A DNA stretch of 64,000 bases from Thermoanaerobaculia bacterium (GTDB lineage: Bacteria; Acidobacteriota; Thermoanaerobaculia; UBA5066), in assembly GCA_963816185.1 (NCBI GenBank), contig CAWFJJ010000006.1, positions 1,326 to 65,325 of the forward strand. The letters run 5' to 3'. The position numbers and the translations under genes are program-made. This document shows positions 10,101-60,615 of this stretch, piece by piece. The notes below the pieces were generated by a model that was not told where the DNA came from, did not search any database, and saw only the letters and a program-made list of their open reading frames with translations. The stretch's first letter is position 1, and every line of letters begins with the position of its first letter.

Positions 10101-10264
10101 GCCGGACGTCGTTCGTGATCGCCCACAGGCTCAGCACCATCCGCGACGCGGACGTCATCCTCGTCCTGGAGAAGGGACGTCTCGTCGAGCACGGGACTCA
10201 CGACGAGCTGATGGACCGCCAGGGGCTCTACTACTACCTGTCGAGCCAGCAGCTCGGGATCTAG
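7082..10264 (+). CDS. peptidase C39 domain-containing ABC exporter with two N-terminal cyclic-nucleotide-binding-like domains
   Basis: 1060-aa ORF. Two CAP/cNMP-type segments (..GDSFGEMGLL.. and ..GDVFGEISAF..). C39 catalytic motifs QIDEMDCGAASLAMV (Cys) and GGNHWVVLYDV (His). ABC membrane domain, Walker A GRSGSGKTT, signature LSGGQKQR, Walker B VLIFDEATS. Confidence 0.9.
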   Translation: MDMEAVTSKASSAAASEIEAARIFLDDLPLLKFLSPASRAAVTAKFVPVAFPFGAVILREGDPADAFFVVVAGKARAVKTGEQGEEVSLGVLRPGDSFGEMGLLDPSAKRQATVRASSAATVLRLDRNAFDALLSGDPEIRTCLELHVRYRSLQNLFRLYTPFSTLPPSVLAGLLHRFETISVAAGEAVFRQGDGEGPLFVVEEGRLRVFTEDDGHRRNIAYLRKGDVFGEISAFTGEPRKATVEAVTPCRLLSLHPSAFRAVTDAHPEFRAAIGRRIAQYDYRKEARVPLDFADELLPAEAQVEEVGPDQIDEDADRPPDESSAEGSAAPFATEDGRFVKGPRRIRRFRFVRQIDEMDCGAASLAMVCRHFGRAVSLARIRQLLFTSTDGTSLRAVCRGAEELGLAARSVKASARHLDQMPLPAILHWGGNHWVVLYDVSPTEARVADPGVGLRRLPRAEVEKEWTGYAALFDYTEAFEKAPVGRSSFAWLTRFFRPHAGVLAKAAGLALIVSVLQMVLPVFSQVIVDRVLVERDEGLLRILLFGMGGVLVFSTLAMVLQRYLLSFAAVRIDASTLDFVTRRLLSLPMSYFSTRKTGDIQRRLMGLRQVRELLVQYGVSSLTALSQLSAVLILMFVYSPLLAGVFLATVPLYALLMRYSRRRLRPVFDTLEEAFGKYSAQQIDTIKGIETVKSLGAEGSLRQLMLERFLGLARKQFRADFTVMTYEGAVQAVSFLSTALFLWAGAVQVMRGSLTIGGLVAFNTLVALANAPIGILLATWDHLQYGTVLLDRLNDVFEQKPEQGDDRSQLLPVRTLAGKVSLRNVGFRFGGPESPLILDGLTFDVDPGKMVAIVGRSGSGKTTLAKLLSGLMEPTEGSILFDGADLKTLNYRDLRRRVGFVLQENYLFDETIARNIAFGDGEPDVDRVLWAARVASAHEFVERFPLGYDTRVGESGLALSGGQKQRVAIARAVYNRPPVLIFDEATSSLDTESERAVKENLDRLLEGRTSFVIAHRLSTIRDADVILVLEKGRLVEHGTHDELMDRQGLYYYLSSQQLGI

Positions 10265-11466
10265 ATGGACGAGGCGCCGTTCCTCCCGAGCGACCCGCCG
10301 CCCTTCGCGGCCCGGAGCCTCGCATGGCTCCTGATCGCCCTCTTCGCAGTGGCCGCTGTCGTATCGGTGGCGGTCAAGGTTCCCGAAACGGTCGTCGCCC
10401 CGTTCGCCCTTGTGCCCATGCGCGGCACCGATCCGGTTCGCGCTCCGCACGGAGGCACGGTCACGGAGGCTCTTGCCGTCGAGGGGCGCCCCGTGGCCAA
10501 GGGCGCGAGGCTCTTTGCCATCCGGTCGCAGGAGTTCGGGGACAGGGCCTCCGAGCGGAAGGCGCTCGAAGCAGGCCTCGGCGGACTTGCCGAGAGCCTT
10601 TCCAACGCCCGGAAGAGATTCGACAGCGAGGCCGGCGAGAGGCGTGAGGAGGCCCGGAGTCTCGCCGATCGCGCGGCCTATCTCGATCGGATGCTGGCTT
10701 TGAAGAGGGAGCAGCTCGCCTTGACGCTGGAGCAGTCCGAGCGGGCGAAGAAGCTCGCCGACCAGGGGCTCGCGAGCTTCAACGACCGTTCCGACGCCCA
10801 GATCCGGCACAGCCAGACCGTCATGGAGCTCGAGCAGCTCCAGTCCGACCGGAGCGCGACCGGGAGCGCCATCGAGAAGCTTCGCGACACCGAAGCGGCG
10901 AAGGGGACCGAGTTCCACGAGGAGGAGCGGGTCCTCGAGGAGAAGATCGCTCAGGCGAGAATCAGGATCGGCGCGCTCAGCGGGGGGCGCCCTCCGCCGG
11001 CGGAGACGAATCTGGAAACGAGCTGGCCGTCACTTCTCCGTGCGACGGCACCGTTCTCGGCGTCACGGCGCGGCGGGCCGGGGCGGTGGTCCGCGAAGGC
11101 GACGTCCTCGCCGAGGTCGCCTGCTCCGCCGAGACCCTGCAGGCCGAGCTGAGCCTCCCGCAGGGAGGGCTCTCCCGGATCCACCCCGGCCAGAGCGTCC
11201 GCCTCCTCCTCGACGCGTTCCCGTACCAGCGCTACGGCGTCCGCGGGGGAAGGGTCCGGTGGGCCAGCCCCTCCGGGGTCGGGACCCGCGAGGCCGCGAC
11301 CTTCCCCGTCCTCGTCGACCTGGACGAGCAGGCCGTCCCGGCGGACGGCGAGCGCAAGCCGCTCCTGGCGGGAATGCGCGGCACCGCGCGCGTCGTCGTC
11401 GGCCGCCGCACGCTCGTCGAGTACGCCTTCGAGCCTCTCCGGCAGCTTCGGGAGAACCTCCGGTGA
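10265..11466 (+). CDS. HlyD-family membrane-fusion/adaptor protein, reading frame interrupted once
   Basis: The ATG abuts the exporter stop (TAGATG). The N-terminal ~240 codons (TM helix LAWLLIALFAVAAVV, long coiled coil) are in one frame. The C-terminal barrel part (NELAVTSPCDGTVLGVTARRAGAVVREGDVLAEV...GMRGTARVVVGRRTLVEY) is in another. The two join only if the run GGGGGG at 10982-10987 gains or loses one G. Confidence 0.75.
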
Positions 11467-11532
11467 CGCGGAAGAGCTTCGCTCGACGCGACGCAACTCA
11501 CGCTCGAGACCTTCCGGAGCGCCGACGCCGCG

Positions 11533-12438
11533 ATGCGCCGCTGCCTCGACGTGGCGCGTGCCGCCTGCCGGACCGAGCTTCCGCTCCTCCTCCTCGGCGA
11601 GTCGGGGACCGGAAAGACGCTCCTCGCCCAGGCGATCCACAACTCCTCTCCGAGAGCGTCGGCTCCCTTCGTCTCCTTCAACGCCGCGGCCCTCTCCGAC
11701 ACGCTCCTCGACAGCCAGCTCTTCGGCCACGAGAAAGGGGCGTTCACGGACGCCAAGCAGCCGCTGCGCGGCAAGTTCGAGGTCGCCGACGGCGGGACCC
11801 TCTTCATCGACGAGATCGCCGACATGAGCCCGCTCGCCCAGGCGAAGATCCTCCGGGCGGTCGAATACGGAGAGTTCGAGAGGCTCGGATCCGAGCGGCT
11901 CCGCAAGGCGGACGTCCGCCTGATCTCGGCCACCCGCCACCCGCTGGAGCGGTTTGCGAACACCGAGCAGTTCCGGAGCGATCTCTTCTACAGGCTCGCG
12001 GGGCTCACCGTCACCCTTCCCCCGCTGCGCGAGCGGCCGAACGACCTGCGCGAGCTCGTCGCGGCCTCGATCCATCGCGCCGCTCACGCACAGGGACGGA
12101 CCATCTCCGGTCTCTCCCAGAAGGCCGCCGATGCCCTTTTCTCGTATCACTGGCCCGGGAATCTCCGGGAGCTCGACCTCGTCATCCACGCCGCAGTCGC
12201 GATGACCGAGGGCTCGGTGATCGAGGAATTTGCGATCCTGGTCCGAAACAACGGCGGGCCCGGGACGTCCCCTTCCGCCGCGCGGCCGGTCCCTGCGGCC
12301 GACCTGAGCCTCCGGGCCGTCGAGCGAGACCACATTCACCGGGTCCTCCGGGAGCTCGGGGGGAACAAGACGAGGGCCGCCAGGACCCTCGGCATCTCGC
12401 GCTCCCGCCTCGAGAGGAAGCTCAACGACGCGAAGTGA
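11533..12438 (+). CDS. sigma-54-dependent transcriptional activator (bEBP) lacking an N-terminal sensory domain
   Basis: 301-aa ORF. AAA+ core GESGTGKT, GAFTDA (GAFTGA variant), LFIDEIADM, WPGNLRELD. C-terminal Fis-type HTH NKTRAARTLGISRSRLERKL. Only ~22 in-frame codons separate the HlyD stop from the first ATG, so there is no room for a receiver, GAF or PAS module. Confidence 0.85.
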   Translation: MRRCLDVARAACRTELPLLLLGESGTGKTLLAQAIHNSSPRASAPFVSFNAAALSDTLLDSQLFGHEKGAFTDAKQPLRGKFEVADGGTLFIDEIADMSPLAQAKILRAVEYGEFERLGSERLRKADVRLISATRHPLERFANTEQFRSDLFYRLAGLTVTLPPLRERPNDLRELVAASIHRAAHAQGRTISGLSQKAADALFSYHWPGNLRELDLVIHAAVAMTEGSVIEEFAILVRNNGGPGTSPSAARPVPAADLSLRAVERDHIHRVLRELGGNKTRAARTLGISRSRLERKLNDAK

Positions 12439-12487
12439 CCGGGCACGGGCGACGGCGACCGCGACAATGAGCCTCGGAACGAGCTAC

Positions 12488-12518
12488 TCGAAACGATGCA
12501 GCAACGCATCGAAACGAT
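12488..12518 (+). promoter_or_regulatory. candidate enhancer (UAS): two TCGAAACGAT boxes 21 nt apart flanking the inverted repeat GATGC-N6-GCATC
   Basis: TCGAAACGAT at 12488-12497 and 12509-12518. GATGCagcaacGCATC at 12495-12510. Lies 56-86 nt upstream of the -24 element. A second inverted repeat, CTGAGA-N5-TCTCAG (12554-12570), abuts the promoter. Confidence 0.3.
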
Positions 12519-12573
12519 ACAGCCCGGGTCCGGAATTCACCGCCATCGCGCGCCTGAGACTGTTTCTCAGCGG

Positions 12574-12589
12574 TGGAACGGTCCTTGCT
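12574..12589 (+). promoter_or_regulatory. sigma-54 (-24/-12) promoter heading the peptide-gene array
   Basis: TGGAAC-GGTCC-TTGCT. GG (12575-76) and GC (12587-88) have the canonical 12-nt register of TGGCAC-N5-TTGC. Located 135 nt downstream of the bEBP stop and 42 nt upstream of the first leader-type RBS and start. Confidence 0.6.
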
Positions 12590-12630
12590 CCGCCCGGGCC
12601 CGGTCCCGAATTCGAGAAAGGAGAAACGAC

Positions 12631-12772
12631 GTGAACCACGAAGAAAACCCCCTCGGGCTTCTACAAGAAGGCGGTGAAGGACCTCGACGTCAAGCCCGCC
12701 AAGGTGACGTCCGCCCGGGCGTCCAGTCTCGAACCGGCCGTCAGCGACCGCGAAGAAGGCGAAGAACCGATC
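12631..12772 (+). pseudogene. decayed copy of the Lys-rich leader peptide gene
   Basis: Preceded by the family RBS (GAAAGGAGAAACGAC-GTG). The nucleotide sequence aligns to the leader consensus only with several small indels. The motif KDLDVKPAK is readable only in a shifted frame and both GG motifs are lost. Confidence 0.5.
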
Positions 12773-12913
12773 ATGAAGAAGACCCCGAAGAAAAGCGCCC
12801 GGACAAGCTTCTCAAAGAAGACGCGGTCAAGGACCTCGCACCAAGCTCCGCCAAGGGCAGGCGGCACGAGGCGGCACGGGAAGGTCTGTGACAGGGGTGG
12901 ATCGAGCATCTGA
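12773..12913 (+). pseudogene. divergent or decayed leader-peptide gene copy (46-codon ORF still open)
   Basis: MKKTPKKSARTSFSKKTRSRTSHQAPPRAGGTRRHGKVCDRGGSSI. The N-terminus (MKKTPKK) and C-terminus (..RGG-SSI) match the family, but the central AVKDLxxKPAKGG block is encoded out of frame (DAVKDLAPSSAKG in another frame). Confidence 0.4.
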
Positions 12914-12968
12914 CGAGCGACCTCCAGCTCGGCAAGGTTCTCGTCCGAGAGATTCCTGTCACTGCGAC

Positions 12969-13190
12969 ATGAAGACGGGCCGCCGCAAGACGAAGCCGTC
13001 GCCGGGGTTCGTCCCCCTCAGGGACCTCGTCCCCCGAAACGACCCCAAGGGCGGGTCGGCCGGGAAGACGGTATTCGGTGAACGTCCCCCGATCGCTCGA
13101 GACAGAAGAAAAGCACCCCTTCAAGGATGTTCCGGCCGAACGAAGGCAGAAGCCGGGTCACGACCGAAACAGGAAGAAAGGAGAAACGCC
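12969..13190 (+). repeat. R-element copy 1 (Arg-rich ORF MKTGRRKTKPSPGFVPLRDLVPRNDPKGGSAGKTVFGERPP.., fused in frame to precursor A by a 1-nt difference)
   Basis: ~225-nt element shared with 5 other copies. It ends in the conserved box CCGGCCGAACGAAGGCAGAAGCCGGGTCACGACCGAAACAGGAAGAAAGGAGAAACG plus the start codon of the next gene. Confidence 0.7.
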
Positions 13191-13376
13191 ATGAAGAAGA
13201 CCACGAAGAAAAGCTCCTCGAAGGCCTCTCACAAGAGAGCCCGCAAAAACCTCGACGTCACGCCTGCCAAGGGCGGGACCGTCCGGGGAGGCGGCAAGGC
13301 GGGCTCGGGCAGGACTACTGTCAGCGACCTCCAGATCAGCAAAGTTGTCGACAAGAGTTCAGCCGTGCTGTTCTGA
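13191..13376 (+). CDS. precursor peptide A: MKKTTKKSSSKASHKRARKNLDVTPAKGGTVRGG / GKAGSGRTTVSDLQISKVVDKSSAVLF
   Basis: ATG preceded by AAAGGAGAAACGCC. 61 codons. Family leader plus a 27-residue C-terminal part. Confidence 0.8.
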   Translation: MKKTTKKSSSKASHKRARKNLDVTPAKGGTVRGGGKAGSGRTTVSDLQISKVVDKSSAVLF

Positions 13377-13399
13377 GAGCGACCTGCTCGAAGACTGGC

Positions 13400-14542
13400 A
13401 TGGTACGGCTTCCGACGATCCCGGACACTCCCGCCAAAGGCCCGGCTCCGCTCCATGCACGCTGGCTCGAAGAGGCCCTCGGGGGAAAGATCCCCTCCGA
13501 GCCCCACGCCACGTGCGAGAGCTGCCCCATGCTCCCTGTGCCCGGCGGCGCGGACGGGGCCCGGGACGCGGTCTTCTTCAATCCCAAGACGAAGTGCTGC
13601 ACCTACCTGCCGAGGCTTCACAACTTTCTCGTCGGCGCGATCCTGGCAGACGAGGCGCCCGACATGGCCGAAGGGCAGGCGCGCGTTCTCGAGAGGATCG
13701 GAAAAAGGGTCGGCGTGACGCCGCTTTGGGTCGGCGCCGGTGGAGCGTACAGCCTCATGTACGACCACGGTGACGGGGTCTTCGGCCACAGCGAGGCGAT
13801 GCGCTGCCCCTACTACCTCGAGGATCGGATCGGCGGCGGCTGCGGGATATGGCGTCACCGCAATTCCATCTGCATGACCTGGTTCTGCAAGCACGAGCGC
13901 GGGGCCCGGGCGCTGCGGTTCTGGGACTCGGCCAAAGAGCTGCTGATGGCCGTCGAGGAGAACCTCGCGATCCACTGCCTCGTCACCCTCGGTTTCGACG
14001 ACGCGGCGCTCCGGACCAATTTCCCGTTCAAGGTTCCGAAGTCTCAGCGGACGGAAACCGTGAAGGGGGACGAGCTCGACGGCACGGTGAGCCCCGAGAG
14101 GTACAAGGCCCTCTGGGGAAGCTGGGCTGGCCGCGAGAAGGAGCTCTACCTCCTAAGCGACGGGATCGTCCGGAACATGGAGTGGAAGGACGTCGAGCGA
14201 ATCGGCGGCGCGAACGTCGCTCTCCTCTCGCAGCTCGCACGCGCTGCCTACCAGACGGCAGCCAGCGACGCTCTTCCGGAGCGCCTCGAAATCGGCAACC
14301 TCAACGTCATCGGCGCCGGGCGTAAGACCGTGCGCCTCGGCACCTACAGCCCATACGACCCCATCGATGCTCCTGCCGCGCTTCTTCCGGCATTGCCCGC
14401 CTTCGACGGCTCCAGGGTACCCGACGCCCTCCGCGCGATCGAGAAGGATCATGGGCTCGTCCTGAGCCCCGAGCTCGTCCGAAAGCTCGTCGACTACGGC
14501 CTGCTCCGCGCGGTGACCGCCCCCGAAGACGAGCGAGTCTAA
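13400..14542 (+). CDS. Cys-rich protein, paralogue 1 (YkgJ/FliB-like CxxC...CC metal-cluster motifs); candidate peptide-tailoring enzyme
   Basis: 380 codons from ATG 13400 within ORF 13127..14542, 23 nt after precursor A. Conserved Cys pattern C-ESC...KCCTYLPRL...MRCPYYLEDRIGGGCGIWRHRNSICMTWFCKHE. The CPYYLEDRxxxxC...RxxxC block resembles the PF03692 (CxxCxxCC / flagellin lysine-N-methylase FliB) family as I remember it. Confidence 0.7.
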   Translation: MVRLPTIPDTPAKGPAPLHARWLEEALGGKIPSEPHATCESCPMLPVPGGADGARDAVFFNPKTKCCTYLPRLHNFLVGAILADEAPDMAEGQARVLERIGKRVGVTPLWVGAGGAYSLMYDHGDGVFGHSEAMRCPYYLEDRIGGGCGIWRHRNSICMTWFCKHERGARALRFWDSAKELLMAVEENLAIHCLVTLGFDDAALRTNFPFKVPKSQRTETVKGDELDGTVSPERYKALWGSWAGREKELYLLSDGIVRNMEWKDVERIGGANVALLSQLARAAYQTAASDALPERLEIGNLNVIGAGRKTVRLGTYSPYDPIDAPAALLPALPAFDGSRVPDALRAIEKDHGLVLSPELVRKLVDYGLLRAVTAPEDERV

Positions 14543-14605
14543 CCAGAACTCGATGAGAAGGCCGAAGCCGGGTCATGAACAAATCAGGGCAAAAGGAGAA
14601 ACGAC

Positions 14606-14737
14606 GTGAAGAAGACCACGAAGAAAAGCCCCTCGAAGGCATCTCACAAGAAGGCGGTCAAGAACCTCGAGCTCAAAACGGTTAAGAGCGGGACGGTCCG
14701 AGGAGGAGTACCCGCGGTCCAAAAGTCAGGGAGATAG
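14606..14737 (+). CDS. precursor peptide B: MKKTTKKSPSKASHKKAVKNLELKTVKSGTVRGG / VPAVQKSGR
   Basis: GTG start 6 nt after AAAGGAGAAACGAC. 43 codons. TAG stop at 14735. Confidence 0.8.
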   Translation: MKKTTKKSPSKASHKKAVKNLELKTVKSGTVRGGVPAVQKSGR

Positions 14738-14747
14738 GAGGAGCAAC

Positions 14748-14885
14748 ATGAAAAAGATCGCGAAGAAGGGCGCCCCGAAGGCCTCTCACAAGAAATCGGT
14801 CAAGGACCTCGAGATCAAGCCCGCCAAGGGCGGGACGGGCGAGACGGTCCGTGGCGGCAAGATGATCGACAAGATCCACATCTGA
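14748..14885 (+). CDS. precursor peptide C: MKKIAKKGAPKASHKKSVKDLEIKPAKGGTGETVRGG / KMIDKIHI
   Basis: ATG after GGAGGAGCAAC. 45 codons. Leader carries the 3-residue insert GET. Confidence 0.8.
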   Translation: MKKIAKKGAPKASHKKSVKDLEIKPAKGGTGETVRGGKMIDKIHI

Positions 14886-14921
14886 CGAGCGCCGCCTGCT
14901 GCAAGGATCGCCCGACCTTCG

Positions 14922-15145
14922 ATGATGAAGACAGGCCGCCGAGGACCAAGCCGTCGCCGGGGGTTCGTCCTCCTCAGAGATCTCATCCCTCGAAACGACC
15001 CCAAAGGCGGGTCGGCCGGGAAAACGGTATTCGGTGAACGTCCCACGGTCCTCGAGACAGAAGAAAAGCACCCCCATGAGGATGTTCCGGCCGAACGAAG
15101 GCAGACGCCGGGTCACGGCCGAAACAGGAGGAAAGGAGACACGAT
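14922..15145 (+). repeat. R-element copy 2 (intact 75-codon ORF 14922..15149: MMKTGRRGPSRRRGFVLLRDLIPRNDPKGGSAGKTVFGERPTVLETEEKH...)
   Basis: Same element as 12969, 15772, 16505, 18386 and 18945. The ORF stop overlaps the precursor D start (ATGA). Confidence 0.7.
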
Positions 15146-15286
15146 ATGAAGAAGACCACGAAGAAGACCCCGAAGGCCTCGCACAAGAAGGCGGTCAGGA
15201 ACCTCGACGTCAAGCCCGCGAAGGGTGGAACGGTCCGTGGCGGAATACATGGTGGCTGGGACCAGCTCGCGAACAAGAAAGTTTGA
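15146..15286 (+). CDS. precursor peptide D: MKKTTKKTPKASHKKAVRNLDVKPAKGGTVRGG / IHGGWDQLANKKV
   Basis: ATG after AAAGGAGACACGAT. 46 codons. Confidence 0.8.
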   Translation: MKKTTKKTPKASHKKAVRNLDVKPAKGGTVRGGIHGGWDQLANKKV

Positions 15287-15373
15287 GTTCCTGGAACACC
15301 CTTCTTAGAAAGTCCGGTCGAACGAAGGTAGAAGCCGGGTCACGACCGAAACAGGAAGTAAGGAGAAGACGTC

Positions 15374-15520
15374 ATGAACAACCCCAAGAAGAAGAGCGCC
15401 TCGAAGGCCTCCCACAAGAGGAAGGTGAAGGACCTCGAGATCAAGCCCGCCAAAGGAGGGACCGTCCGTGGAGGCAAGGTCTTTCCCAAGGTGACCACGG
15501 GTTTGCTCGACAAGTACTAG
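15374..15520 (+). CDS. precursor peptide E: MNNPKKKSASKASHKRKVKDLEIKPAKGGTVRGG / KVFPKVTTGLLDKY
   Basis: ATG after GTAAGGAGAAGACGTC. 48 codons. Confidence 0.8.
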   Translation: MNNPKKKSASKASHKRKVKDLEIKPAKGGTVRGGKVFPKVTTGLLDKY

Positions 15521-15596
15521 CGAGGCTGAAGTTACCCCTTTCGTCGCGCGACCTCGCGCTCGGTCACGACCGAAACAGGAAGAAGGGAGACACGAC

Positions 15597-15734
15597 ATGA
15601 AGAAGAACGCGAAGAAGAACCCTCCGAAGGGTTCCCGAAAGAACGCAATCAAGGACCTCGAGATCAAGCCCGCCAAGGGCGGGACGGACGGGACGGTCCG
15701 TGGCGGCAAGTTCGAGACCAAGATCCACATCTGA
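15597..15734 (+). CDS. precursor peptide F: MKKNAKKNPPKGSRKNAIKDLEIKPAKGGTDGTVRGG / KFETKIHI
   Basis: ATG after AGAAGGGAGACACGAC. 45 codons. Leader insert DGT. Confidence 0.8.
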   Translation: MKKNAKKNPPKGSRKNAIKDLEIKPAKGGTDGTVRGGKFETKIHI

Positions 15735-15771
15735 CGAGGGCCGCTTGCCGTAAGGGCCGATCGGCCCCTCG

Positions 15772-15996
15772 ATGATGAAGACAGTCCGCCGAGGACCAAG
15801 CCTTCGCCAGGGATTCGTTCCCCTCAGGGACCTCGTGCCCTGAAACGACCCCAAGGGGGGGTCCGCTGGGAAGACGGTATTCGGCGAACGTCCCCCGGTT
15901 TCCGTGACAGAAATGACACAGCGCTTCCAGGATGTTCCGGCCGCACGAAGGCAGAAGCCGGGTCACGGTCGAAACAGTAAGTAAGGAGAAGACGTC
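15772..15996 (+). repeat. R-element copy 3 (ORF interrupted by TGA at 15841: MMKTVRRGPSLRQGFVPLRDLVP*)
   Basis: Nucleotide-level homologue of the other R copies, but with an in-frame stop inside the otherwise conserved PRNDPKGG block. Confidence 0.65.
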
Positions 15997-16128
15997 ATGA
16001 ACAACCCCAAGAAGAAGAGCGCCTCGAAGGCTTCCCACAAGAAGACGGTCAAGAACCTCGAGGTCACGCCCGTCAAGGGCGGGAAGGTCCGTGGGGGCTT
16101 CCCGACGCCATGGAAAAACAAGGTCTAA
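15997..16128 (+). CDS. precursor peptide G: MNNPKKKSASKASHKKTVKNLEVTPVKGGKVRGG / FPTPWKNKV
   Basis: ATG after GTAAGGAGAAGACGTC. 43 codons. Confidence 0.8.
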   Translation: MNNPKKKSASKASHKKTVKNLEVTPVKGGKVRGGFPTPWKNKV

Positions 16129-16174
16129 TGCCGCCCGAAATGACGCGCGAATCCAGAAGAAAGGAGAAACGAAC

Positions 16175-16306
16175 ATGAAAAAGACCTCGAAGAAGAGCGC
16201 CTCGAAGGCATCTCACAAGAAGGCGGTCAAGGACCTCGAGGTCAAGCACGCCAAGAGCGGGACGGTTCGCGGAGGACTGCCCCCCGGTCCACCAACCTAC
16301 AAATGA
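16175..16306 (+). CDS. precursor peptide H: MKKTSKKSASKASHKKAVKDLEVKHAKSGTVRGG / LPPGPPTYK
   Basis: ATG after GAAAGGAGAAACGAAC. 43 codons (3' part of ORF 16091..16306). Confidence 0.8.
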   Translation: MKKTSKKSASKASHKKAVKDLEVKHAKSGTVRGGLPPGPPTYK

Positions 16307-16327
16307 GTGGACAAAATGAGAACCGAC

Positions 16328-16453
16328 ATGAAGAAGACCACGAAGAAAGACCCTTCGAAGGCCTCTAAGAAGAAGGCGGTCAAAAACCTCGAGGTCAAGC
16401 CCGCGAGGGGTGGAACGGTCCGCGGAGGCTGGGACCCGACCAAAGCGCGATAG
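16328..16453 (+). CDS. precursor peptide I: MKKTTKKDPSKASKKKAVKNLEVKPARGGTVRGG / WDPTKAR
   Basis: 41 codons. No obvious SD. An in-frame ATG at 16316 would add MRTD. Starts 22 nt after precursor H. Confidence 0.7.
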   Translation: MKKTTKKDPSKASKKKAVKNLEVKPARGGTVRGGWDPTKAR

Positions 16454-16504
16454 CGTCGAAACGAGTCACTCGAAACGACCCCTTCTCCGAAAGTGAACCG
16501 CGAG

Positions 16505-16725
16505 ATGAAGACAGGCCGCGGTAAGACAAAGCCCTCGCCGGGGTTCGTCCCCCTCAGGGACCTCATCCCCCGAAACGATCCCAAGGGCGGGTCGGCCGGG
16601 AAGACGGTATTCGGCGAGCGTCCCCCGGTCCTCGAGGCAGAAGAAAAGCACCCCTTCAAGGATGTTCCGGCCGAACGAAGGCAAAAGCCGGGTCACGACC
16701 GAAACAGGAAGAGAGGAGAGACGAC
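16505..16725 (+). repeat. R-element copy 4 (ORF 16493/16505..16729: MKTGRGKTKPSPGFVPLRDLIPRNDPKGGSAGKTVFGERPPVLEAEEKH...)
   Basis: Belongs with copy 1 to a subclass that differs from copies 2, 5 and 6 by a compensated pair of 1-nt indels near the 5' end. Preceded by two TCGAAACGA boxes (16456, 16470). Confidence 0.7.
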
Positions 16726-16914
16726 ATGAAGAAGAACACGAAGAAGACAGCCTCCAAGGCAAAGGGGCCCAAGGCGACGAAGAATCTCGACGTCAAGCCC
16801 GCCAAGGGCGCGAAGGTCCGTGGTGGAACTGTAAACAAGGGGTGGATCGAAGTTTCATCCTTCAGTTTTAATGCGGAACCCACCGTCAGTGTGACCGCGA
16901 AGAAGCCGTCCTGA
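16726..16914 (+). CDS. precursor peptide J: MKKNTKKTASKAKGPKATKNLDVKPAKGAKVRGG / TVNKGWIEVSSFSFNAEPTVSVTAKKPS
   Basis: 62-aa ORF in the track. RBS GAGAGGAGAGACGAC. Stop overlaps the GT41 start (TGATG). Confidence 0.8.
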   Translation: MKKNTKKTASKAKGPKATKNLDVKPAKGAKVRGGTVNKGWIEVSSFSFNAEPTVSVTAKKPS

Positions 16915-18386
16915 TGAGCACCGGCTGGCCGAAGGGCTGCCGCATGCTCGCGGCGGGCAAGTATGCGAGCGGCCTCGCGGCCTTCGAACCGGCCGTCCGG
17001 GCGAGTCCGGACTCTGCGGCCGCACGATTCCACCTCGCCCGGGCGAGCTTCGCCCTAGGGGAGGTCGAGAGGGCGACCCGGCAGCTTCGGGCGGCACTCC
17101 GGATCCGCACGGATATCCGAGCTCTGCGGTTCCTGGCCACGATCGCCCCGTTCGACCCGCGCCTCGACCACGCGGCGATCCTGAAGGTCCGCCGCGCGCT
17201 GGCCGCTGCGGTTCGCGCTCGAACCGTCGCGCCCGCCAGGGCGATCGTCGTCGGGAGCCCGGCCAGGAAAGTGCTCAAGGTTGGCTACGTCTCGTCTTTC
17301 TTCGACAAGGACAACTGGATGAAGCCGGTGTGGGGGCTGATCGATCACCACGACGCCAAGAGGGTGGAGATCCACCTTTTTGCCGACGTGCCGCGCGTTT
17401 CTGCGGTGCGTCGGCGGGCGCGTGCGAGCGCGGCGCACGTCCACGACATCTCGCGCCTTGACAACGATGTGGCCGCGCGGCTGATCGCCCGGACGGGGCT
17501 CGACGTCCTCGTGGATCTCAATCAGTACAGCCGGGTCGGCCGGATGCCGCTTTTTTCGACCAGGCTGGCGCCGGTCGTCGTCGCGTGGTTCAACATCTTC
17601 GGGACCTCGGGAATGCCGGTTTTCGACGCGCTGATCGGCGATCGATGGCTCGTCCGCGACGTCGAGAAGCCTTGGTACCTCGAAAAGATCGTGAAACTCC
17701 CGTTCTCGTCGCTGACTTTCGCGGTGGACTATCCGGTCCCTGACGTCGGGCCGCCGCCTTTCTTGCGCAACGGCTTCGTCACGTTCGGAAGTCTTTCGTC
17801 GCTGTACAAGCTCAACGACGGCGTCGTCGGCACCTGGGCCGACATTCTGAAGCGGAGCCCGGGAAGCCGTCTTCTCCTGGGCAATGCGGATCTGGGAGAC
17901 CCCGGCAACCGAGCGCACACTCTCGAGCGATTCACCGCGCGCGGGATCGAGCCCGCGCGCGTCACGTTGCTCGGGCCCGACGAGCACTACGAGTTTCTCC
18001 GAAACTACGACGCGATTGACCTCGCTCTCGACACGTTCCCCTACAACGGAGGCACGACGACCACCGAGGCGATCTGGCAAGGAGTCCCGGTCGTCGCGTT
18101 CTTGGGGGACCGGTGGATCTCGCGTACCAGCGCCTCCCTGCTGGAAAACGCCGGTCTTGAGGGCTTCGTCAGCCGGGACGTCCGCGGTTATGTCGAAACG
18201 GCCGTCCGGTGGGGGTCGGGAGCAAAGGCGGAAGAACGGAGAGAGCTCCGCCGCACGATGAGGAAACGCCTGAAAGCCTCACCCGTCACCGACTGCGCGA
18301 GCCTCGCGCGCTGCATCGAGGACGCTTACGTCCAATTGTGGGGCGCGAGGACTCGCTCCGCTCTCCCTCAGCGGATGACAGCGTGA
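16914..18386 (+). CDS. TPR-containing GT41-family glycosyltransferase (OGT/SPINDLY-like)
   Basis: 490-aa ORF. N-terminal TPR-like helices. C-terminal block VTFGSLSSLYKLND...LLLG...IDLALDTFPYNGGTTTTEAIWQGVPVVAF matches the GT41 catalytic-domain signature (DTFPYxGxTTxxxALWxGVPVV). Confidence 0.85.
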   Translation: MSTGWPKGCRMLAAGKYASGLAAFEPAVRASPDSAAARFHLARASFALGEVERATRQLRAALRIRTDIRALRFLATIAPFDPRLDHAAILKVRRALAAAVRARTVAPARAIVVGSPARKVLKVGYVSSFFDKDNWMKPVWGLIDHHDAKRVEIHLFADVPRVSAVRRRARASAAHVHDISRLDNDVAARLIARTGLDVLVDLNQYSRVGRMPLFSTRLAPVVVAWFNIFGTSGMPVFDALIGDRWLVRDVEKPWYLEKIVKLPFSSLTFAVDYPVPDVGPPPFLRNGFVTFGSLSSLYKLNDGVVGTWADILKRSPGSRLLLGNADLGDPGNRAHTLERFTARGIEPARVTLLGPDEHYEFLRNYDAIDLALDTFPYNGGTTTTEAIWQGVPVVAFLGDRWISRTSASLLENAGLEGFVSRDVRGYVETAVRWGSGAKAEERRELRRTMRKRLKASPVTDCASLARCIEDAYVQLWGARTRSALPQRMTA

Positions 18387-18606
18387 TGAAGACAGGCCGT
18401 CGAGGACCAAGCCGTCGCCGCGGGTTCGTCCTCCTCAGAGATCTCGTCCCCCGAAACGATCCCAAGGGCGGATCGGCCGGGAAGACGGTATTCAGCGAGC
18501 GTCCCCCGGTCCTCGAGACAGAAGATAAGCATCACCTTAAAGATGTTCCGGCCGAACGAAGGCAAAAGCCGGGTCACGACCGAAACAGGAAGAAAGGAGA
18601 AACGAC
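18386..18606 (+). repeat. R-element copy 5 (ORF 18386..18610: MKTGRRGPSRRRGFVLLRDLVPRNDPKGGSAGKTVFSERPPVLETEDKHHLKD...)
   Basis: The ATG overlaps the GT41 stop (TGATG). The stop overlaps the precursor K start (GTGA). Confidence 0.7.
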
Positions 18607-18741
18607 GTGAAGAAGATCACGAAGAAAGGTCCCTCGAAGGCCCCCAAGAAGAGGACGACGAAGAATCTCGACGTCAAGCCCGCCAAGGGCGGGACGATCC
18701 GCGGGGGGAGCCTCCCCCGACAGTGGAAGTGGATCGAGTGA
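18607..18741 (+). CDS. precursor peptide K: MKKITKKGPSKAPKKRTTKNLDVKPAKGGTIRGG / SLPRQWKWIE
   Basis: GTG after AAAGGAGAAACGAC. 44 codons. Confidence 0.8.
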   Translation: MKKITKKGPSKAPKKRTTKNLDVKPAKGGTIRGGSLPRQWKWIE

Positions 18742-18776
18742 CGCCGGCCGACGGCCAGAAGGAAAGGAGAAACGCC

Positions 18777-18908
18777 ATGAAAAAGACCACGAAGAAGAAC
18801 CCTCCGAAGGTGTATCGAAAGAAGGCAATCAAGGACCTCGAGATCAAGCCCGCCAAGGGCGGGACGGGCGAGACAGTCCGTGGCGGCAAGGATAAGATCC
18901 ACATCTGA
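18777..18908 (+). CDS. precursor peptide L: MKKTTKKNPPKVYRKKAIKDLEIKPAKGGTGETVRGG / KDKIHI
   Basis: ATG after GAAAGGAGAAACGCC. 43 codons. Leader insert GET as in precursor C. Confidence 0.8.
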   Translation: MKKTTKKNPPKVYRKKAIKDLEIKPAKGGTGETVRGGKDKIHI

Positions 18909-18944
18909 CGAGAGCCGCTTCCTGCAAGGACCGCCCGATCCTCG

Positions 18945-19168
18945 ATGATGAAGACAGGCCGCCGAGGACCAAGCCGTCGCCGGGGGTTCGTCCTCCTCAG
19001 AGATCTCGTCCCCCGAAACGATCCCAAGGGCGGGTCGGCCGGGAAGACGGTATTCGGCGAGCGTCCCCCGGTCCTCGAGACAGAAGATAAGCATCACCTT
19101 AGAGATGTTCCGGCCGAACGAAGGCAGAAGCCGGGTCACGACCGAAACAGGAAGAGAGGAGAAACGAC
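18945..19168 (+). repeat. R-element copy 6 (ORF 18945..19172: MMKTGRRGPSRRRGFVLLRDLVPRNDPKGGSAGKTVFGERPPVLETEDKHHLRD...)
   Basis: Near-identical to copies 2 and 5. Most differences from them fall on third codon positions of this frame (manual comparison). Confidence 0.7.
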
Positions 19169-19312
19169 GTGAAGAAGATCACGAAGAAAGGTCCCTCGAA
19201 GGCTTCCAAGAAGAGGACGACGAAGAATCTCGACGTCAAGCCCGCCAAGGGCGCGACGGTTCGTGGCGGAGTGCATGGCGGTTGGGACCAGATCGCGAAC
19301 AAGAAGATTTGA
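19169..19312 (+). CDS. precursor peptide M: MKKITKKGPSKASKKRTTKNLDVKPAKGATVRGG / VHGGWDQIANKKI
   Basis: GTG after AGAGGAGAAACGAC. 47 codons. Confidence 0.8.
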   Translation: MKKITKKGPSKASKKRTTKNLDVKPAKGATVRGGVHGGWDQIANKKI

Positions 19313-19393
19313 GTTCCTGGAACACCCTTCATAGGTCTGGTCGAACCACTACAAGCCGGGTTACGACCGAAACAGGAAGAGAGGAGACACGAC

Positions 19394-19537
19394 ATGAAGA
19401 AGAACACGAAGAAGACAGCCTCCAAGGCAAAGGGGCCCAAGGCGACGAAGAACCTAGAGGTCAAACCCGCCAAGGGGGCGTCGGTCCGTGGCGGAGTGCA
19501 TGGTGGCTGGGACCAGGTCGGGAACAAGAAGTATTAG
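19394..19537 (+). CDS. precursor peptide N: MKKNTKKTASKAKGPKATKNLEVKPAKGASVRGG / VHGGWDQVGNKKY
   Basis: ATG after AGAGAGGAGACACGAC. 47 codons. The stop abuts the Cys-rich paralogue 2 ORF. Confidence 0.8.
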   Translation: MKKNTKKTASKAKGPKATKNLEVKPAKGASVRGGVHGGWDQVGNKKY

Positions 19538-20782
19538 TTGCCCTCTGATCAAGTGACCTCTCCGAAGACCCGCGCGGTCCGGCTCCCGTCGATCACCGAT
19601 GCTCCCGCCAGGGGCCTGGCACCGCTTCATGCGCGCTGGCTCGAGGCGGCGCTCGGGGGCAAGATTCCTTCCGAGCCACACGCGGCGTGCGACAACTGCG
19701 CGATGCTGCCGGTGTCCGGAGGCGCGGATGAAGAGCGCGGCGCAGTCTTCTTCAACCCCAGGACGAAGTGCTGCACTTACCTGCCGAGACTTCACAACTT
19801 TCTCGTCGGGGCGATCCTCGCAGACGAAGCGACCGATATGGCCGAAGGGCGTGCCCGCGTCCTGGAGAGGATCGGGAAGAAGGTCGGCGTGACGCCGCTC
19901 TGGGTCGGCGCCGGCGGCGCGTACAGCCTCGTGTACGACCACGGAGACGGGGTCTTCGGCCACAGCGAGGCGATGCGCTGCCCCTACTATCTCGAAGACC
20001 GGATCGACGGCGGCTGCGGGGTGTGGCGTCACCGCAATTCCATCTGCATGACCTGGTTCTGCAAGCATGAGCGCGGGGCCCCGGCGCTGCGGTTCTGGGA
20101 CTCGGCCAAAGAGCTGCTGATGGCCGTCGAGGAGAATCTCGCGATCCATTGCCTCGTCACTCTGGGTTTCGACGACGCGGCGCTCCGGACCAATTTCCCG
20201 TTCAAGGTTCCGAAATCTCAGCGGTCGGAAACCGTGAAGGGGGACGAGCTCGACGGCACGGTGAGCCCGGAACGATACAAGGCTCTCTGGGGGAGCTGGA
20301 CGGGCCGCGAGGAGGAGCTCTACCGCCAATGCGACGCGATCGTCCGAGACATCGAGTGGAAGGACGTCGAGCGCATCGGCGGCGCGAGCGTCGCACTCCT
20401 GTCGCAGCTCGCGCGCGCGGCCTATCAGGCGGTGATCCGTGACGACCTTCCCGAGCGGCTCGAGATCGGCAATCTCAGCGTCATCGGCACGGGGCGCGGG
20501 ACCTTGCGCCTGGCCACGTACAGCGCCTACGACCCCATCGACGCCCCGGCCGCGCTTCTCCCCGTGCTTCCCGCGTTCGACGGCTCCAGGGTGCCCGACG
20601 CCCTTCGCGCGATCGAAAGGGACCATGGGCTCGTCCTGAGCCCCGAGCTCGTCCGAAAGCTCGTCGACTACGGCCTGCTCCGCGCGGTGGACGCCCCCGA
20701 AGACGAGCAAGTCTGGCGAAACTCCATGAAAAGGCGGAAGCCGGGTCATCGCCAAAACAGGATGAAAGGAGAAACGACATGA
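19538..20782 (+). CDS. Cys-rich protein, paralogue 2 (YkgJ/FliB-like motifs)
   Basis: 414-aa ORF. Start is TTG 19538 or GTG 19553. About 47 substitutions over ~378 aligned residues versus paralogue 1 (manual count), and all 9 Cys of paralogue 1 are conserved. It lacks the stop used by paralogue 1 and reads 22 codons further, ending in an ATGA overlap with precursor O. Confidence 0.7.
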   Translation: MPSDQVTSPKTRAVRLPSITDAPARGLAPLHARWLEAALGGKIPSEPHAACDNCAMLPVSGGADEERGAVFFNPRTKCCTYLPRLHNFLVGAILADEATDMAEGRARVLERIGKKVGVTPLWVGAGGAYSLVYDHGDGVFGHSEAMRCPYYLEDRIDGGCGVWRHRNSICMTWFCKHERGAPALRFWDSAKELLMAVEENLAIHCLVTLGFDDAALRTNFPFKVPKSQRSETVKGDELDGTVSPERYKALWGSWTGREEELYRQCDAIVRDIEWKDVERIGGASVALLSQLARAAYQAVIRDDLPERLEIGNLSVIGTGRGTLRLATYSAYDPIDAPAALLPVLPAFDGSRVPDALRAIERDHGLVLSPELVRKLVDYGLLRAVDAPEDEQVWRNSMKRRKPGHRQNRMKGETT

Positions 20783-20910
20783 AGAAGATCACGAAGAAAG
20801 GTTCCTCAAAGGCTTCCAAGAAGAAGGCGGTCAGGAACCTCGACGTCAAGCCTGCGAAGGGCGGGACGGTCCGTGGAGGGGCAACCAGACTCGACAAGTG
20901 GCCCGGGTAG
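20779..20910 (+). CDS. precursor peptide O: MKKITKKGSSKASKKKAVRNLDVKPAKGGTVRGG / ATRLDKWPG
   Basis: ATG after GAAAGGAGAAACGAC. 43 codons. Confidence 0.8.
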   Translation: MKKITKKGSSKASKKKAVRNLDVKPAKGGTVRGGATRLDKWPG

Positions 20911-20934: not shown

Positions 20935-21149
20935 AGGCCGGCTACGCGGTACTTCCGCGCGAAGAGCGTGAGCCGCGCGGAGAGGTGGAGAAGCTGAGCG
21001 AGCTGCGTCGCACGATGAGGATACGGTTGCGGGCTTCGCCGGTCACCGATTGCCCAAGGCTCGCGCGCCGCATGGACGATGTCTACCTCCGGCTATCGGG
21101 CGCGAGCCCTCGTCGGAAACGACCCCGGGCCGCGCTCCCGCGTAATTGA
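20935..21149 (+). pseudogene. C-terminal remnant of a second GT41 glycosyltransferase gene
   Basis: ..ELRRTMRIRLRASPVTDCPRLARRMDDVYLRL.. aligns to the last ~45 residues of the intact GT41 protein (ELRRTMRKRLKASPVTDCASLARCIEDAYVQLW). Nothing corresponding to the TPR or catalytic parts precedes it. Confidence 0.7.
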
Positions 21150-32522: not shown

Positions 32523-32682
32523 CTCGGATGAAGGAGTCGACCGCCTAGACGCCCCCGCGGCGCCCCCGCGCGCCTCGCCCGCGCTCCGCATCGCTCACGG
32601 GTCGGCCCTCGGTCGGCTTCCGGCTCTCCGCTTGATGATTGACGCGGGAAGAGCGGGAGTTCACTTTAGCCACGGAGGTTCC

Positions 32683-53004: not shown

Positions 53005-53092
53005 TTCACTGGAAGAAGGTAGATCTCCGGAAAGCCGAACTCCCGCGGGAATAGAATCGCAGCCGCTCTTCGTCTCCGGAGGTTTCACGCCG

Positions 53093-60596: not shown

Positions 60597-60615
60597 CGCG
60601 TGACCGCCCGGCCGG

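Follow-up and report, generated by a model that had tools for sequence, protein, structure and literature searches.

Organization of the locus

The window analyzed here is a 64,000-nucleotide stretch of contig CAWFJJ010000006.1 from a Thermoanaerobaculia bacterium (GCA_963816185.1). It contains 15 tandem small precursor genes (W01 to W15) on the forward strand, together with genes for a peptidase-containing exporter, a transcriptional activator, a partner protein, a glycosyltransferase, and two copies of an uncharacterized 8-Cys protein. The coordinates of these features are presented in the table. Related loci in other genomes are designated by L numbers, of which L001 is syntenic with the window.

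Coordinates of the features of the precursor locus within the window
Positions	Strand	Feature	Remarks
6099-7100	+	SurA/PpiC-like partner protein	end overlaps the start of the transporter gene
7082-10264	+	peptidase-containing ABC exporter	two cNMP-binding domains, C39 peptidase, ABC membrane domain, ATPase
10265-11466	+	HlyD-type membrane fusion protein	ORFs 10265-11152 and 11086-11466; apparent frameshift near a G-run at about 10983-10990
11533-12438	+	sigma-54-dependent activator (PspF-like)	AAA+ domain and HTH only; no receiver or sensor domain
12574-12589	+	sigma-54 promoter-like site	TGGAACGGTCCTTGCT, at the head of the precursor array
about 12632-12890	+	two decayed precursor copies	indels and frameshifts
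12969-13194	+	second small ORF	frameshifted
13191-13376	+	precursor W01	core GKAGSGRTTVSDLQISKVVDKSSAVLF, equivalent to Hcp residues about 45-70
13400-14542	+	8-Cys enzyme, copy 1	N-terminal domain resembles the CxxCxxCC family; C-terminal predicted RRE
14606-14737	+	precursor W02	GTG start
14748-14885	+	precursor W03	
14925-15149	+	second small ORF	
15146-15286	+	precursor W04	core IHGGWDQLANKKV
15374-15520	+	precursor W05	
15597-15734	+	precursor W06	
15775-16000	+	second small ORF	internal stop
15997-16128	+	precursor W07	
16175-16306	+	precursor W08	
16328-16453	+	precursor W09	
16505-16729	+	second small ORF	
16726-16914	+	precursor W10	core TVNKGWIEVSSFSFNAEPTVSVTAKKPS, equivalent to Hcp residues about 21-41
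16914-18386	+	TPR plus GT41 (SPY/OGT-like) glycosyltransferase	accessory, lineage-specific
18386-18610	+	second small ORF	
18607-18741	+	precursor W11	GTG start
18777-18908	+	precursor W12	
18948-19172	+	second small ORF	
19169-19312	+	precursor W13	GTG start
19394-19537	+	precursor W14	
19538-20782	+	8-Cys/RRE enzyme, copy 2	start codon uncertain; stop overlaps the ATG of W15
20779-20910	+	precursor W15	

The partner protein was identified by a Pfam match to Rotamase_2 (E 1.4e-5) and by a weak match to NCBIfam TIGR04500, "putative peptide maturation system protein" (28 bits against a cutoff of 180). Orthologues lie next to the transporter in about 18 related loci. The exporter matches Pfam cNMP_binding (two stretches), Peptidase_C39 (1.2e-32), ABC_membrane, and ABC_tran, and its best NCBIfam match is TIGR03796 at 527 bits, below the cutoff of that model. 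The catalytic Cys, His, and Asp of the C39 domain are present in the motifs DEMDCGAASL, GNHWVVLY, and VADP. The two HlyD ORFs match the N- and C-terminal halves of TIGR01843/TIGR03794, and the orthologue in L001 is intact at 400 aa. The N-terminus of the activator is also frameshifted in this window, and these frameshifts could represent either a long-read assembly error or real decay. The activator matches the AAA+ region of the NCBIfam NifA, PspF, and NtrC models with E-values down to 1e-84, and orthologues occur in related loci. No outer-membrane channel gene was identified among the ORFs annotated in the locus.

The promoter-like site matches 11 of 12 sigma-54 consensus positions and is the only such site in the locus. 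Similar sites precede precursors in L001, L015, L017, L030, L032, and L080. In the two decayed precursor copies, alignment of the DNA with intact copies shows deletions of 5 nt and 3 nt in the first copy and a 2-nt insertion in the second. The glycosyltransferase was identified with Pfam (Glyco_transf_41 at 3.6e-35, plus TPR) and was found only in the window and in L001 among 88 related loci. The second conserved small ORF encodes about 74 aa with the pattern MKTGRR..PGFV.LRDLVPRNDPKGG|SAGKTVFGERP... and is present in six copies, each with a stop that overlaps the start of the next precursor. In its conserved part, 16 of 27 variable columns fall at the third codon position, and homologues with the core xGK(R/T)xFG(E/D) occur in L001, L015, L017, L030, L032, and L060.

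The two copies of the 8-Cys enzyme are 87% identical over 383 aa, and the C-terminal domain is predicted to fold as a RiPP recognition element (RRE). No recognized RiPP enzyme family was detected with Pfam or NCBIfam. Weak hits to PF03692 were obtained for 18 of 50 members, with a best E-value of 0.0018, and there was no hit to the NCBIfam FliB model. The enzyme lies next to K-rich GG peptides in 30 of 72 loci, as counted by a loose motif screen that includes some spurious hits, and next to a LanB/LanC cluster in L005. Many homologues have no exporter within 10 kb, but the co-occurrence with K-rich GG peptides is found across phyla even in such loci. The module of PpiC-like protein, cNMP-C39-ABC transporter, HlyD, 8-Cys enzyme, and sometimes the activator recurs in about 20 of 80 species-representative loci from several phyla.

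Precursor leaders and the probable cleavage site

The original prediction described 15 small ORFs with a conserved Lys-rich leader, an AGGAGA-type ribosome binding site, and an abrupt change to variable sequence, and this observation was confirmed. The encoded peptides are 41-62 aa in length. Twelve copies have AGGAGA 5-8 nt upstream of the start codon, and three have the variants AGGAGG, GGGAGA, and ATGAGA. Alignment of the 15 sequences identified M1, K6, K7, K11, the L of (D/N)L, and R-G-G as invariant residues. The leaders are 33-37 aa in length with 8-11 Lys, 1-3 Arg, and only 1-3 acidic residues. The border directly after V-R-G-G is sharp, with a mean pairwise nucleotide identity of 0.75 over the last 30 nt of the leader and 0.30 over the first 18 nt of the core. 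A substitution pattern inconsistent with coding had been specified beforehand as grounds for rejecting these genes. The leader pN/pS is 0.43 (pS 0.41, pN 0.18), consistent with coding sequence under purifying selection.

The proposed leader consensus, (A/T)(V/I)(K/R)(D/N)L(E/D)(V/I/L)KPAKG(G/A)xVRGG, has exceptions. W02 and W08 have KSG, W10, W13, and W14 have KGA, and a 3-aa insertion (TGE or TDG) is found in W03, W06, and W12. The statement that the cores diverge completely was overstated, since subfamilies with K..KIHI (three copies) and (I/V)HGGWDQxxNKK (three copies) are present.

The interpretation that accompanied these observations was partly supported. The assignment as double-glycine-leader precursors adjacent to a C39 transporter, with an unusually Lys-rich leader, was supported. 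The proposal of two alternative cleavage sites, after PAKGG and after VRGG, was not supported as posed, since the two sites are not equivalent. The second GG is invariant in 112 of 112 family members, with Val/Ile at -4 in all 112 and Arg/Lys at P3 in 108. The first GG is found at the same position in only 64 of 112, is absent in 5 of the 15 copies here, is displaced by the 3-aa insertion in 3 more, and is deleted in the relative P0141. It sits at -7/-6, where relatives in other phyla have Ala-(Lys/Arg) in an otherwise canonical double-glycine leader. The 66 leaders from other lineages have a single GG, aligned with the second site, with hydrophobic residues at -4 (100%), -7 (83%), and -12 (91%). 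In several lineages the residue directly after the second GG is exactly Ala2 of Hcp, at which cores of the N-terminal type begin. The similarity of the cores to Hcp had been missed, as had the presence of an RRE-bearing 8-Cys enzyme, which makes this more than a plain class II bacteriocin array.

Similarity of the cores to Hcp

[quoted passage not shown] Of 163 unique cores, 34 score ≥8 bits against an Hcp profile, compared with 0 of 3260 shuffled sequences, and these cores cover about 140 of 160 profile positions. Pfam T6SS_HCP is the top hit for 9 of 10 long relatives and for W01. Concatenated cores align end to end with Hcp1 (1Y12, E 8e-35) and with real Hcp proteins at up to 55% identity over 99% coverage. 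Only about one-fifth of all cores (32 of 118 of those ≥12 aa) are demonstrably Hcp-like. The same pattern of leader plus Hcp fragment recurs in Acidobacteriota, Methylomirabilota, Gemmatimonadota, and Myxococcota.

In this window W01, W04, W10, W13, and W14 match clearly. The W01 core matches Pfam T6SS_HCP at E 0.0011 and a local Hcp HMM at E 8e-7, and its only hits in the PDB are Hcp1 1Y12 residues 47-70 and two fusion constructs containing Hcp. The W10 core matches the local HMM at E 0.012 with p = 0.01 in a shuffle test, and its sole PDB hit is an Hcp1-family protein, 4W64 residues 25-46. The W04 core matches the exact C-terminus of a real Hcp (p ≤ 0.003), and W13 and W14 match the Hcp C-terminus (p ≤ 0.003). 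The W12 core KDKIHI resembles Hcp KDEIHI (p = 0.01), whereas W03 and W06 (K..KIHI) resemble Hcp KHKDEIHI only weakly. Six of the 15 cores (W05, W07, W08, W09, W11, and W15) show no similarity. Single cores searched against the whole PDB returned only Hcp, and three non-Hcp cores returned nothing.

Proposed pathway and comparison with known systems

The locus is best explained, with reasonable confidence, as a multi-precursor, RiPP-like peptide export system under sigma-54 control. Expression of the array from a single sigma-54 promoter by the PspF-like activator is inferred from sequence. Each precursor has a cationic, Lys-rich N-terminal segment followed by a double-glycine leader. The fold of the RRE is shown by prediction, whereas binding of the leader to this domain is inferred, and the SurA/PpiC-like protein probably assists. 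The N-terminal Cys-rich domain may modify the core, but no modification is demonstrated and the chemistry is not known; a Lys-directed, Fe-S-dependent reaction is a speculative guess by distant analogy to FliB. Cleavage by the C39 domain of the cNMP-gated exporter after the second Gly-Gly, followed by export of a mildly cationic core of 6-28 residues through the ABC/HlyD machinery, is inferred from conservation. That a large share of the cores, here and in other phyla, are overlapping fragments of Hcp is shown by sequence statistics. In this view the products would be Hcp-mimetic peptides, whose role after export is not known. No published description of this gene set, which is conserved across several soil phyla, was found.

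Processing at the first Gly-Gly, or sequentially at both sites, is unlikely but not excluded, and the mature peptides would then carry, at least transiently, a constant TVRGG N-terminus. Relative to PAKGG the leader has E/D at -8, V/I/L at -7, A at -4, and V at -12, which fits the classical rule better than the second site, where -7 is Gly in this lineage. GA, seen in 3 copies, is an accepted cleavage variant, and a tandem xKGGxV(K/R)GG appears in a few distant loci, L049 and L079. The conservation of the second site described above, the conserved/variable border, and the start of Hcp homology directly after it argue against this reading.

It is similarly unlikely that the products are plain unmodified double-glycine peptides (class II bacteriocins or signals) on which the 8-Cys proteins, the GT41, and the PpiC-like protein do not act. 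In favor of this possibility, no recognized RiPP enzyme family is detected with Pfam or NCBIfam, the cores are very short and lack Cys, and exporters with adjacent GG peptides often need no tailoring. However, the enzyme has a predicted RRE, is interleaved with the precursors, and co-occurs with K-rich GG peptides, a TIGR04500-type partner is functionally required in another RiPP pathway, and the 18-residue Lys-rich extension is conserved beyond what C39 recognition needs. It is very unlikely that the array is debris of a broken hcp gene or a repeated intergenic element that happens to contain ORFs. The decayed precursors, two defective copies of the second small ORF, a GT41 remnant, and the HlyD and activator frameshifts are in keeping with decay. 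The leader pN/pS and the ribosome binding site of every copy argue otherwise, as does the recurrence of the same design in four phyla with diverged DNA and leaders. The fragments are also not colinear with hcp, and each is fused precisely to a leader.

The leaders resemble those processed by C39 peptidase-containing ABC transporters (class II bacteriocins, ComC, colicin V; PCAT1, LahT) in ending in GG with Val at -4, next to an exporter with a catalytic C39 domain and a HlyD partner. They differ in an extra segment of about 18 residues that is one-third Lys with a net charge of about +9, in the additional GG located 5 residues upstream, in the two N-terminal cNMP domains of the exporter, and in the short cores, many of which are Hcp fragments. 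Prochlorosin-type systems with NHLP/Nif11 leaders and TIGR03796 exporters similarly have many tandem precursors with one leader, an abrupt switch to diverse cores, and one promiscuous enzyme directed by the leader. The leaders described here match neither the NHLP nor the Nif11 model (no NCBIfam hit), the enzyme is not LanM or a radical SAM enzyme, and the cores are tiles of a known protein rather than random variants.

Short peptides that copy β-strand segments of a target protein, flanked by Lys/Arg, are also found among synthetic Pept-ins, which copy aggregation-prone segments between charged gatekeeper residues (for example PMC10065276, PMC10492782). This is only a functional analogy for what Hcp-mimetic peptides could do, since Pept-ins are man-made, no natural system of this type is described, and nothing here shows uptake, co-aggregation, or T6SS inhibition. 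The FliB flagellin lysine N-methyltransferase and the PF03692 (CxxCxxCC, YkgJ) superfamily (PMC8598068) share eight conserved Cys with an N-terminal CxxC...CC motif and Lys-rich substrates, as 157 of 163 cores contain Lys, usually near the C-terminus. The motif spacing is CxxC-x23-CC here and Cx4Cx3CC in FliB, no hit passes threshold, FliB has no described RRE, and neither cofactor nor chemistry has been tested.

The rosaritide graspetide cluster (MirA/B/C/D; PMC13097080) is a proven RiPP module in which a SurA/PpiC-like TIGR04500-type protein, the essential partner MirC, is paired with a TIGR03796-type exporter and GG-cleaved precursors. In the locus described here no ATP-grasp ligase was seen among the proteins scanned with Pfam, the PpiC-like protein scores far below the TIGR04500 cutoff, and the catalytic enzyme would be the 8-Cys protein. 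HetC of Nostoc (PMC10986499) also has an N-terminal cyclic-nucleotide-binding domain fused to a C39-ABC exporter, and this domain binds ppGpp and is required for function. HetC has no known substrate gene nearby, whereas in this locus the substrates are adjacent and there are two cNMP domains.

Precursor genes and surrounding features

The original prediction of 15 small precursor genes was confirmed, and all of the ORFs are present on the + strand at the stated places. Three of the ORFs start with GTG. The sequence AGGAGA is found 5-8 nt upstream of the start codon in 12 copies, and variants of it precede the other three. A protein alignment of the 15 copies was used to define a leader of 33-37 aa, M(K/N)(K/N)xxKK...K..(D/N)L(E/D)(V/I/L)..K...(V/I)RGG, which contains 8-11 Lys and almost no acidic residues. 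A substitution pattern inconsistent with coding had been named in advance as grounds for rejecting these genes. The pN/pS value across the 15 paralogous leaders is 0.43, and the mean pairwise nucleotide identity falls from 0.75 in the last 30 nt of the leader to 0.30 in the first 18 nt of the core. The genes are therefore coding, and the conserved/variable border is located exactly after V-R-G-G. The cores had been described as diverging completely from the next codon on, but they are not wholly unrelated, as K..KIHI and (I/V)HGGWDQxxNKK subfamilies of three copies each are found. Two additional decayed and frameshifted copies lie directly downstream of the sigma-54 promoter-like site. The features of the locus and of two related loci are summarized in the table.

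Coordinates of the features in the window and in related loci (L numbers denote the related loci retrieved)
Sequence	Coordinates	Feature
Window	2884-5133 (-) and 42290-44437 (+)	S9 prolyl-oligopeptidase-family genes
Window	6099-7100	SurA/PpiC-like protein, weak TIGR04500 match
Window	7082-10264	Exporter with two cNMP domains, a C39 peptidase with catalytic Cys/His/Asp, and ABC domains; nearest model TIGR03796
Window	10265-11466	HlyD, apparently frameshifted at a G-run
Window	about 10983-10993 and 11463-11533	Apparent frameshifts in the HlyD gene, at the G-run, and between the conserved start of the sigma-54 activator and its AAA+ domain
Window	11533-12438	Sigma-54 activator with only AAA+ and HTH domains
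Window	12574-12589	Sigma-54 promoter-like site, TGGAACGGTCCTTGCT
Window	about 12632-12890	Two decayed precursor copies
Window	12969-13194, 14925-15149, 15775-16000, 16505-16729, 18386-18610, 18948-19172	Six copies of a 225-nt stretch, second conserved small ORF of about 74 aa
Window	13400-14542	8-Cys protein of about 380 aa, interleaved with the precursors
Window	16914-18386	TPR-GT41 glycosyltransferase, interleaved with the precursors
Window	19538-20782	8-Cys protein of about 380 aa, interleaved with the precursors
Window	21000-21146	Remnant of the C-terminus of a second GT41 gene
Window	32479-35214, 37729-40425 (-), 52937-55663, 56606-60664	A PAS-GAF-GGDEF-EAL protein and three large Ser/Thr kinases (two with PD40 beta-propellers, one with an AAA_16 ATPase)
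L005 / L021 (uncultured Acidobacteriota MAG)	11319-19437	Homologue of the 8-Cys/RRE enzyme beside a class I lanthipeptide cluster
L048 (Planctomycetales MAG)	13844-20014 (-)	Rhs/YD-repeat protein of 2056 aa

The conserved start of the sigma-54 activator overlaps the HlyD stop. The orthologues of HlyD and the activator in L001, the syntenic relative of this locus, are intact. The frameshifts in the window represent either a long-read assembly error or decay of the exporter in this genome. The GT41 remnant is 60% identical to residues 444-486 of the intact copy (E 3e-14) and is located just after the last precursor, which indicates that the array grew by segmental duplication. The repeated three-gene cassettes W03-ORF-W04, W06-ORF-W07, and W12-ORF-W13 (precursors are numbered W01 to W15), each with spacers of 40-41 nt, point the same way. 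The best NCBIfam hit of the S9 gene that flanks the cluster is oligopeptidase B, far below the cutoff. An orthologue near the 8-Cys enzyme was seen only in locus L075, and a role in peptide trimming is therefore unproven. The PAS-GAF-GGDEF-EAL protein and the three kinases lie downstream and appear to be unrelated to the cluster.

The 225-nt stretch is found upstream of six precursors. An Rfam scan of 11-22 kb returned only one chance-level hit, and the stretch is therefore not a known RNA. No sigma-54 site was found inside the stretch, and the promoter-like site listed in the table is the only one in the locus. The encoded peptide reads MKTGRR..PGFV.LRDLVPRNDPKGG|SAGKTVFGERP..., where four copies are intact, one has a stop, and one is frameshifted. 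Each stop overlaps the start of the following precursor (ATGA or GTGA). Third-codon-position bias and homologues in loci of other phyla, with the core xGK(R/T)xFG(E/D), argue for a second small ORF family and suggest a distinct precursor or regulatory peptide with a conserved core. No significant similarity of this family to Hcp was detected.

The 8-Cys protein and the conserved module

The two copies of the 8-Cys protein are 87% identical to each other. Neither the precursors nor this protein gave a hit passing threshold in Pfam or NCBIfam. The protein contains eight invariant Cys, arranged as CxxC-x23-CC followed by CPYY..CGIW..C....C. A RiPP recognition element (RRE; winged-helix, PqqD-like fold) is predicted in this enzyme, whose C-terminal domain comprises the last 96 aa. 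PF03692 (CxxCxxCC) was matched by 18 of 50 members of the family, with a best E of 0.0018 and none above threshold, and no FliB hit was obtained in NCBIfam. FliB, the [4Fe-4S]/SAM flagellin lysine methylase, also has eight conserved Cys (PMC8598068) and is the only characterized enzyme of the PF03692 family known to us. These matches leave the assignment to PF03692 undecided, and the link to FliB is a lead rather than a membership. A profile search of PDB sequences with the enzyme alignment gave only noise, and a Foldseek search against the PDB gave no significant whole-chain match. No structural comparison with FliB or YkgJ was made, and a search of representative proteins listed only close relatives and so did not bridge to FliB.

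The family is large. There are 226 relatives in species-representative genomes, all MAGs, from Acidobacteriota, Methylomirabilota, Gemmatimonadota, Myxococcota, Chloroflexota, Planctomycetota, and others, and 2043 cluster representatives at E<=1e-3. In about 20 of the 80 retrieved loci the enzyme lies with orthologues of the cNMP-C39-ABC exporter, HlyD, the PpiC-like protein, and often the sigma-54 activator. Sigma-54-like sites precede precursors in several of these loci. The GT41 gene is restricted to the window and to L001. In L005 / L021 the enzyme homologue sits beside LanB and LanC with GG-leader precursors, which suggests that the enzyme family also serves as a tailoring enzyme in other RiPP contexts.

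Gly-Gly sites of the leader and similarity of the cores to Hcp

Two Gly-Gly sites had been proposed as alternatives for cleavage, after PAKGG or after VRGG, and this interpretation was only partly supported. V-R-G-G is invariant in 15/15 copies of the window, and the second GG is invariant in 112 family members. P4 is Val in 109 and Ile in 3 of these members, and P3 is Arg in 98 and Lys in 10. The first GG appears at the same position in only 64/112 members. In the window it is K-S-G in two copies and K-G-A in three, and it is shifted by a 3-aa insertion in three more. One relative, P0141, lacks it entirely. Sixty-six leaders from other lineages have a single GG with hydrophobic residues at -4 (100%), -7 (83%, Ala), and -12 (91%, Leu), which is a canonical double-glycine leader. 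The first GG of the window occupies -7/-6, where those leaders have Ala-(Lys/Arg). In the window lineage -4 is V and -12 is V/L, but -7 is G and -15 is D/N, and hence the agreement with the pattern of hydrophobic residues at -4, -7, -12, and -15 is partial and does not decide whether the rule applies in this lineage. The cores that correspond to the N-terminus of Hcp begin, right after GG, with the residue equivalent to Hcp Ala2, as in AVDVFAKLGDIKGES, AIDIFAKIGDIKGES, and ASDIFAKIGDIKGES, against MAFDAFLKLDGIKGES in real Hcp. Cleavage after V-R-G-G is therefore considered likely from the comparative data. Cleavage at the first site, or sequential cleavage, is not excluded because PAKGG does fit the E-8/V-7/A-4 rule, and neither cleavage nor export was assayed. 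The C39 domain of the adjacent exporter, at about residues 340-480 of the protein encoded at 7082-10264, was identified with Pfam (Peptidase_C39, E 1.2e-32), and the Cys (DCGAASL), His (NHWVVLY), and Asp motifs expected of a catalytically competent domain are present.

The cores were then compared with Hcp, the T6SS tube protein (PF05638). Several relatives are named 'Hcp' by JGI. Pfam T6SS_HCP is the top hit, below its cutoff, for 9/10 longer relatives and for W01 (E 7e-5 to 0.018), and different peptides match different parts of the profile. A hand-made concatenation of cores from different precursors aligns colinearly with residues 10-162 of P. aeruginosa Hcp1 (1Y12) at E 8e-35, and with real Hcp proteins at up to 55% identity over 99% of its length. 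Against an HMM built from 116 real Hcp proteins, 34 of 163 unique cores score >=8 bits, compared with 0 of 3260 shuffles, and they cover 140 of 160 profile positions. Four single cores searched against all PDB sequences return only Hcp, at colinear positions. Three long cores that do not resemble Hcp return nothing from the PDB, and no second source protein was identified.

Within the window, the core of W01 matches Hcp residues 45-70 and that of W10 matches residues 21-41. The cores of W04, W13, and W14 match the exact C-terminal 13 residues (p<=0.003). The core of W12 matches KDEIHI (p = 0.01), W03 and W06 show a weaker resemblance to the same segment, and W02 is borderline. No similarity was found for W05, W07, W08, W09, W11, and W15. 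The cores are 6-28 aa here and 5-35 aa in relatives, and they match only segments of the profile rather than a complete beta-barrel domain of about 160 aa. They are derived from Hcp or mimic it, but they are not Hcp proteins. Lys is present in 157/163 cores, and the last Lys lies within five residues of the C-terminus in 117/157 cores, against 88 +/- 5 expected from shuffles.

The same design recurs next to the enzyme in loci from Acidobacteriota (L015, L017, L030, L032), Methylomirabilota (L022), Gemmatimonadota (L027, L028, L059), and Myxococcota (L056, L057). It is therefore conserved and presumably selected. Some relatives encoded near the enzyme in L049, L060, L079, L027, L059, and L073 have extremely short, strongly basic cores of 4-9 aa, such as LARQK, RIKK, LRAQK, LRRRS, and ALRKRLRN, which cannot be Hcp mimics and hint at a second class of products. 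The longer Hcp homologues start with the normal MAFDAFLK, and no ancestral leader-Hcp fusion was found. No Hcp or T6SS genes were found among the window ORFs scanned or in the related loci, apart from the Rhs protein of L048, which ends in a complete Hcp-like domain and lies about 3 kb from an 8-Cys enzyme homologue.

Interpretation and comparison with known systems

The anatomy of the precursors, a catalytically competent C39 domain, the predicted RRE fold, the conserved module, and the Hcp tiling are demonstrated by the sequence analysis. Expression driven by sigma-54, capture of the leader by the RRE with the assistance of the partner protein, cleavage after VRGG, and export through ABC/HlyD gated by a nucleotide ligand are inferred. 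An Fe-S-dependent, possibly Lys-directed modification and an anti-T6SS or Hcp-decoy function for the peptides are speculative. Modification of the core was not measured, and no chemistry can be inferred with confidence.

It is possible, but unlikely on the present evidence, that the system makes and secretes a library of short peptides, perhaps modified and many ending in or near a Lys, that copy overlapping segments of Hcp and act as sequence-specific antagonists of type VI secretion. Such peptides could act by strand competition or homotypic co-aggregation with Hcp, as a natural counterpart of synthetic 'Pept-ins', or as decoys for Hcp-binding effectors. That would be a peptide-based anti-T6SS strategy made by a new Fe-S/RRE enzyme family. 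If the peptides interfere with T6SS, or report on it, a new type of interbacterial interaction in soil communities would be opened and ready-made peptide probes against Hcp would be supplied. A genuinely new type of interbacterial mechanism is the less probable outcome.

Literature searches on Hcp-derived precursor peptides, PF03692 in RiPPs, and Acidobacteria GG precursors found nothing relevant. In the searchable literature there is no description of the leader family, the 8-Cys/RRE enzyme family, the conserved second small ORF, or, above all, cores that tile a T6SS structural protein. Natural secreted peptides whose sequences tile a structural protein of a bacterial weapon have, to our knowledge, no precedent. 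We also found no published description of the multi-phylum module of sigma-54 activator, SurA-like partner, cNMP-gated C39 exporter, and 8-Cys/RRE enzyme. The analysis provides a probable substrate class and a genomic context for this uncharacterized enzyme family.

The architecture of leader and core, RRE enzyme, and PCAT is that of the known RiPP/bacteriocin paradigm. Eight precursors scanned against NCBIfam at E<=1 gave no hits, and homology of the leader to nitrile hydratase alpha or Nif11 (TIGR03793 / TIGR03798) was therefore not found. In the rosaritide pathway, a TIGR04500-type SurA-like protein (MirC) is an obligatory partner of the modifying enzyme, and a TIGR03796 exporter is also used (PMC13097080). 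The PpiC-like protein of the window scores 28 bits against the TIGR04500 cutoff of 180, and none of the locus proteins scanned with Pfam has the ATP-grasp domain of a graspetide ligase. PCATs with cNMP domains are known from HetC (PMC10986499), and the locus provides a cNMP-domain PCAT with its substrates encoded alongside, which HetC lacks.
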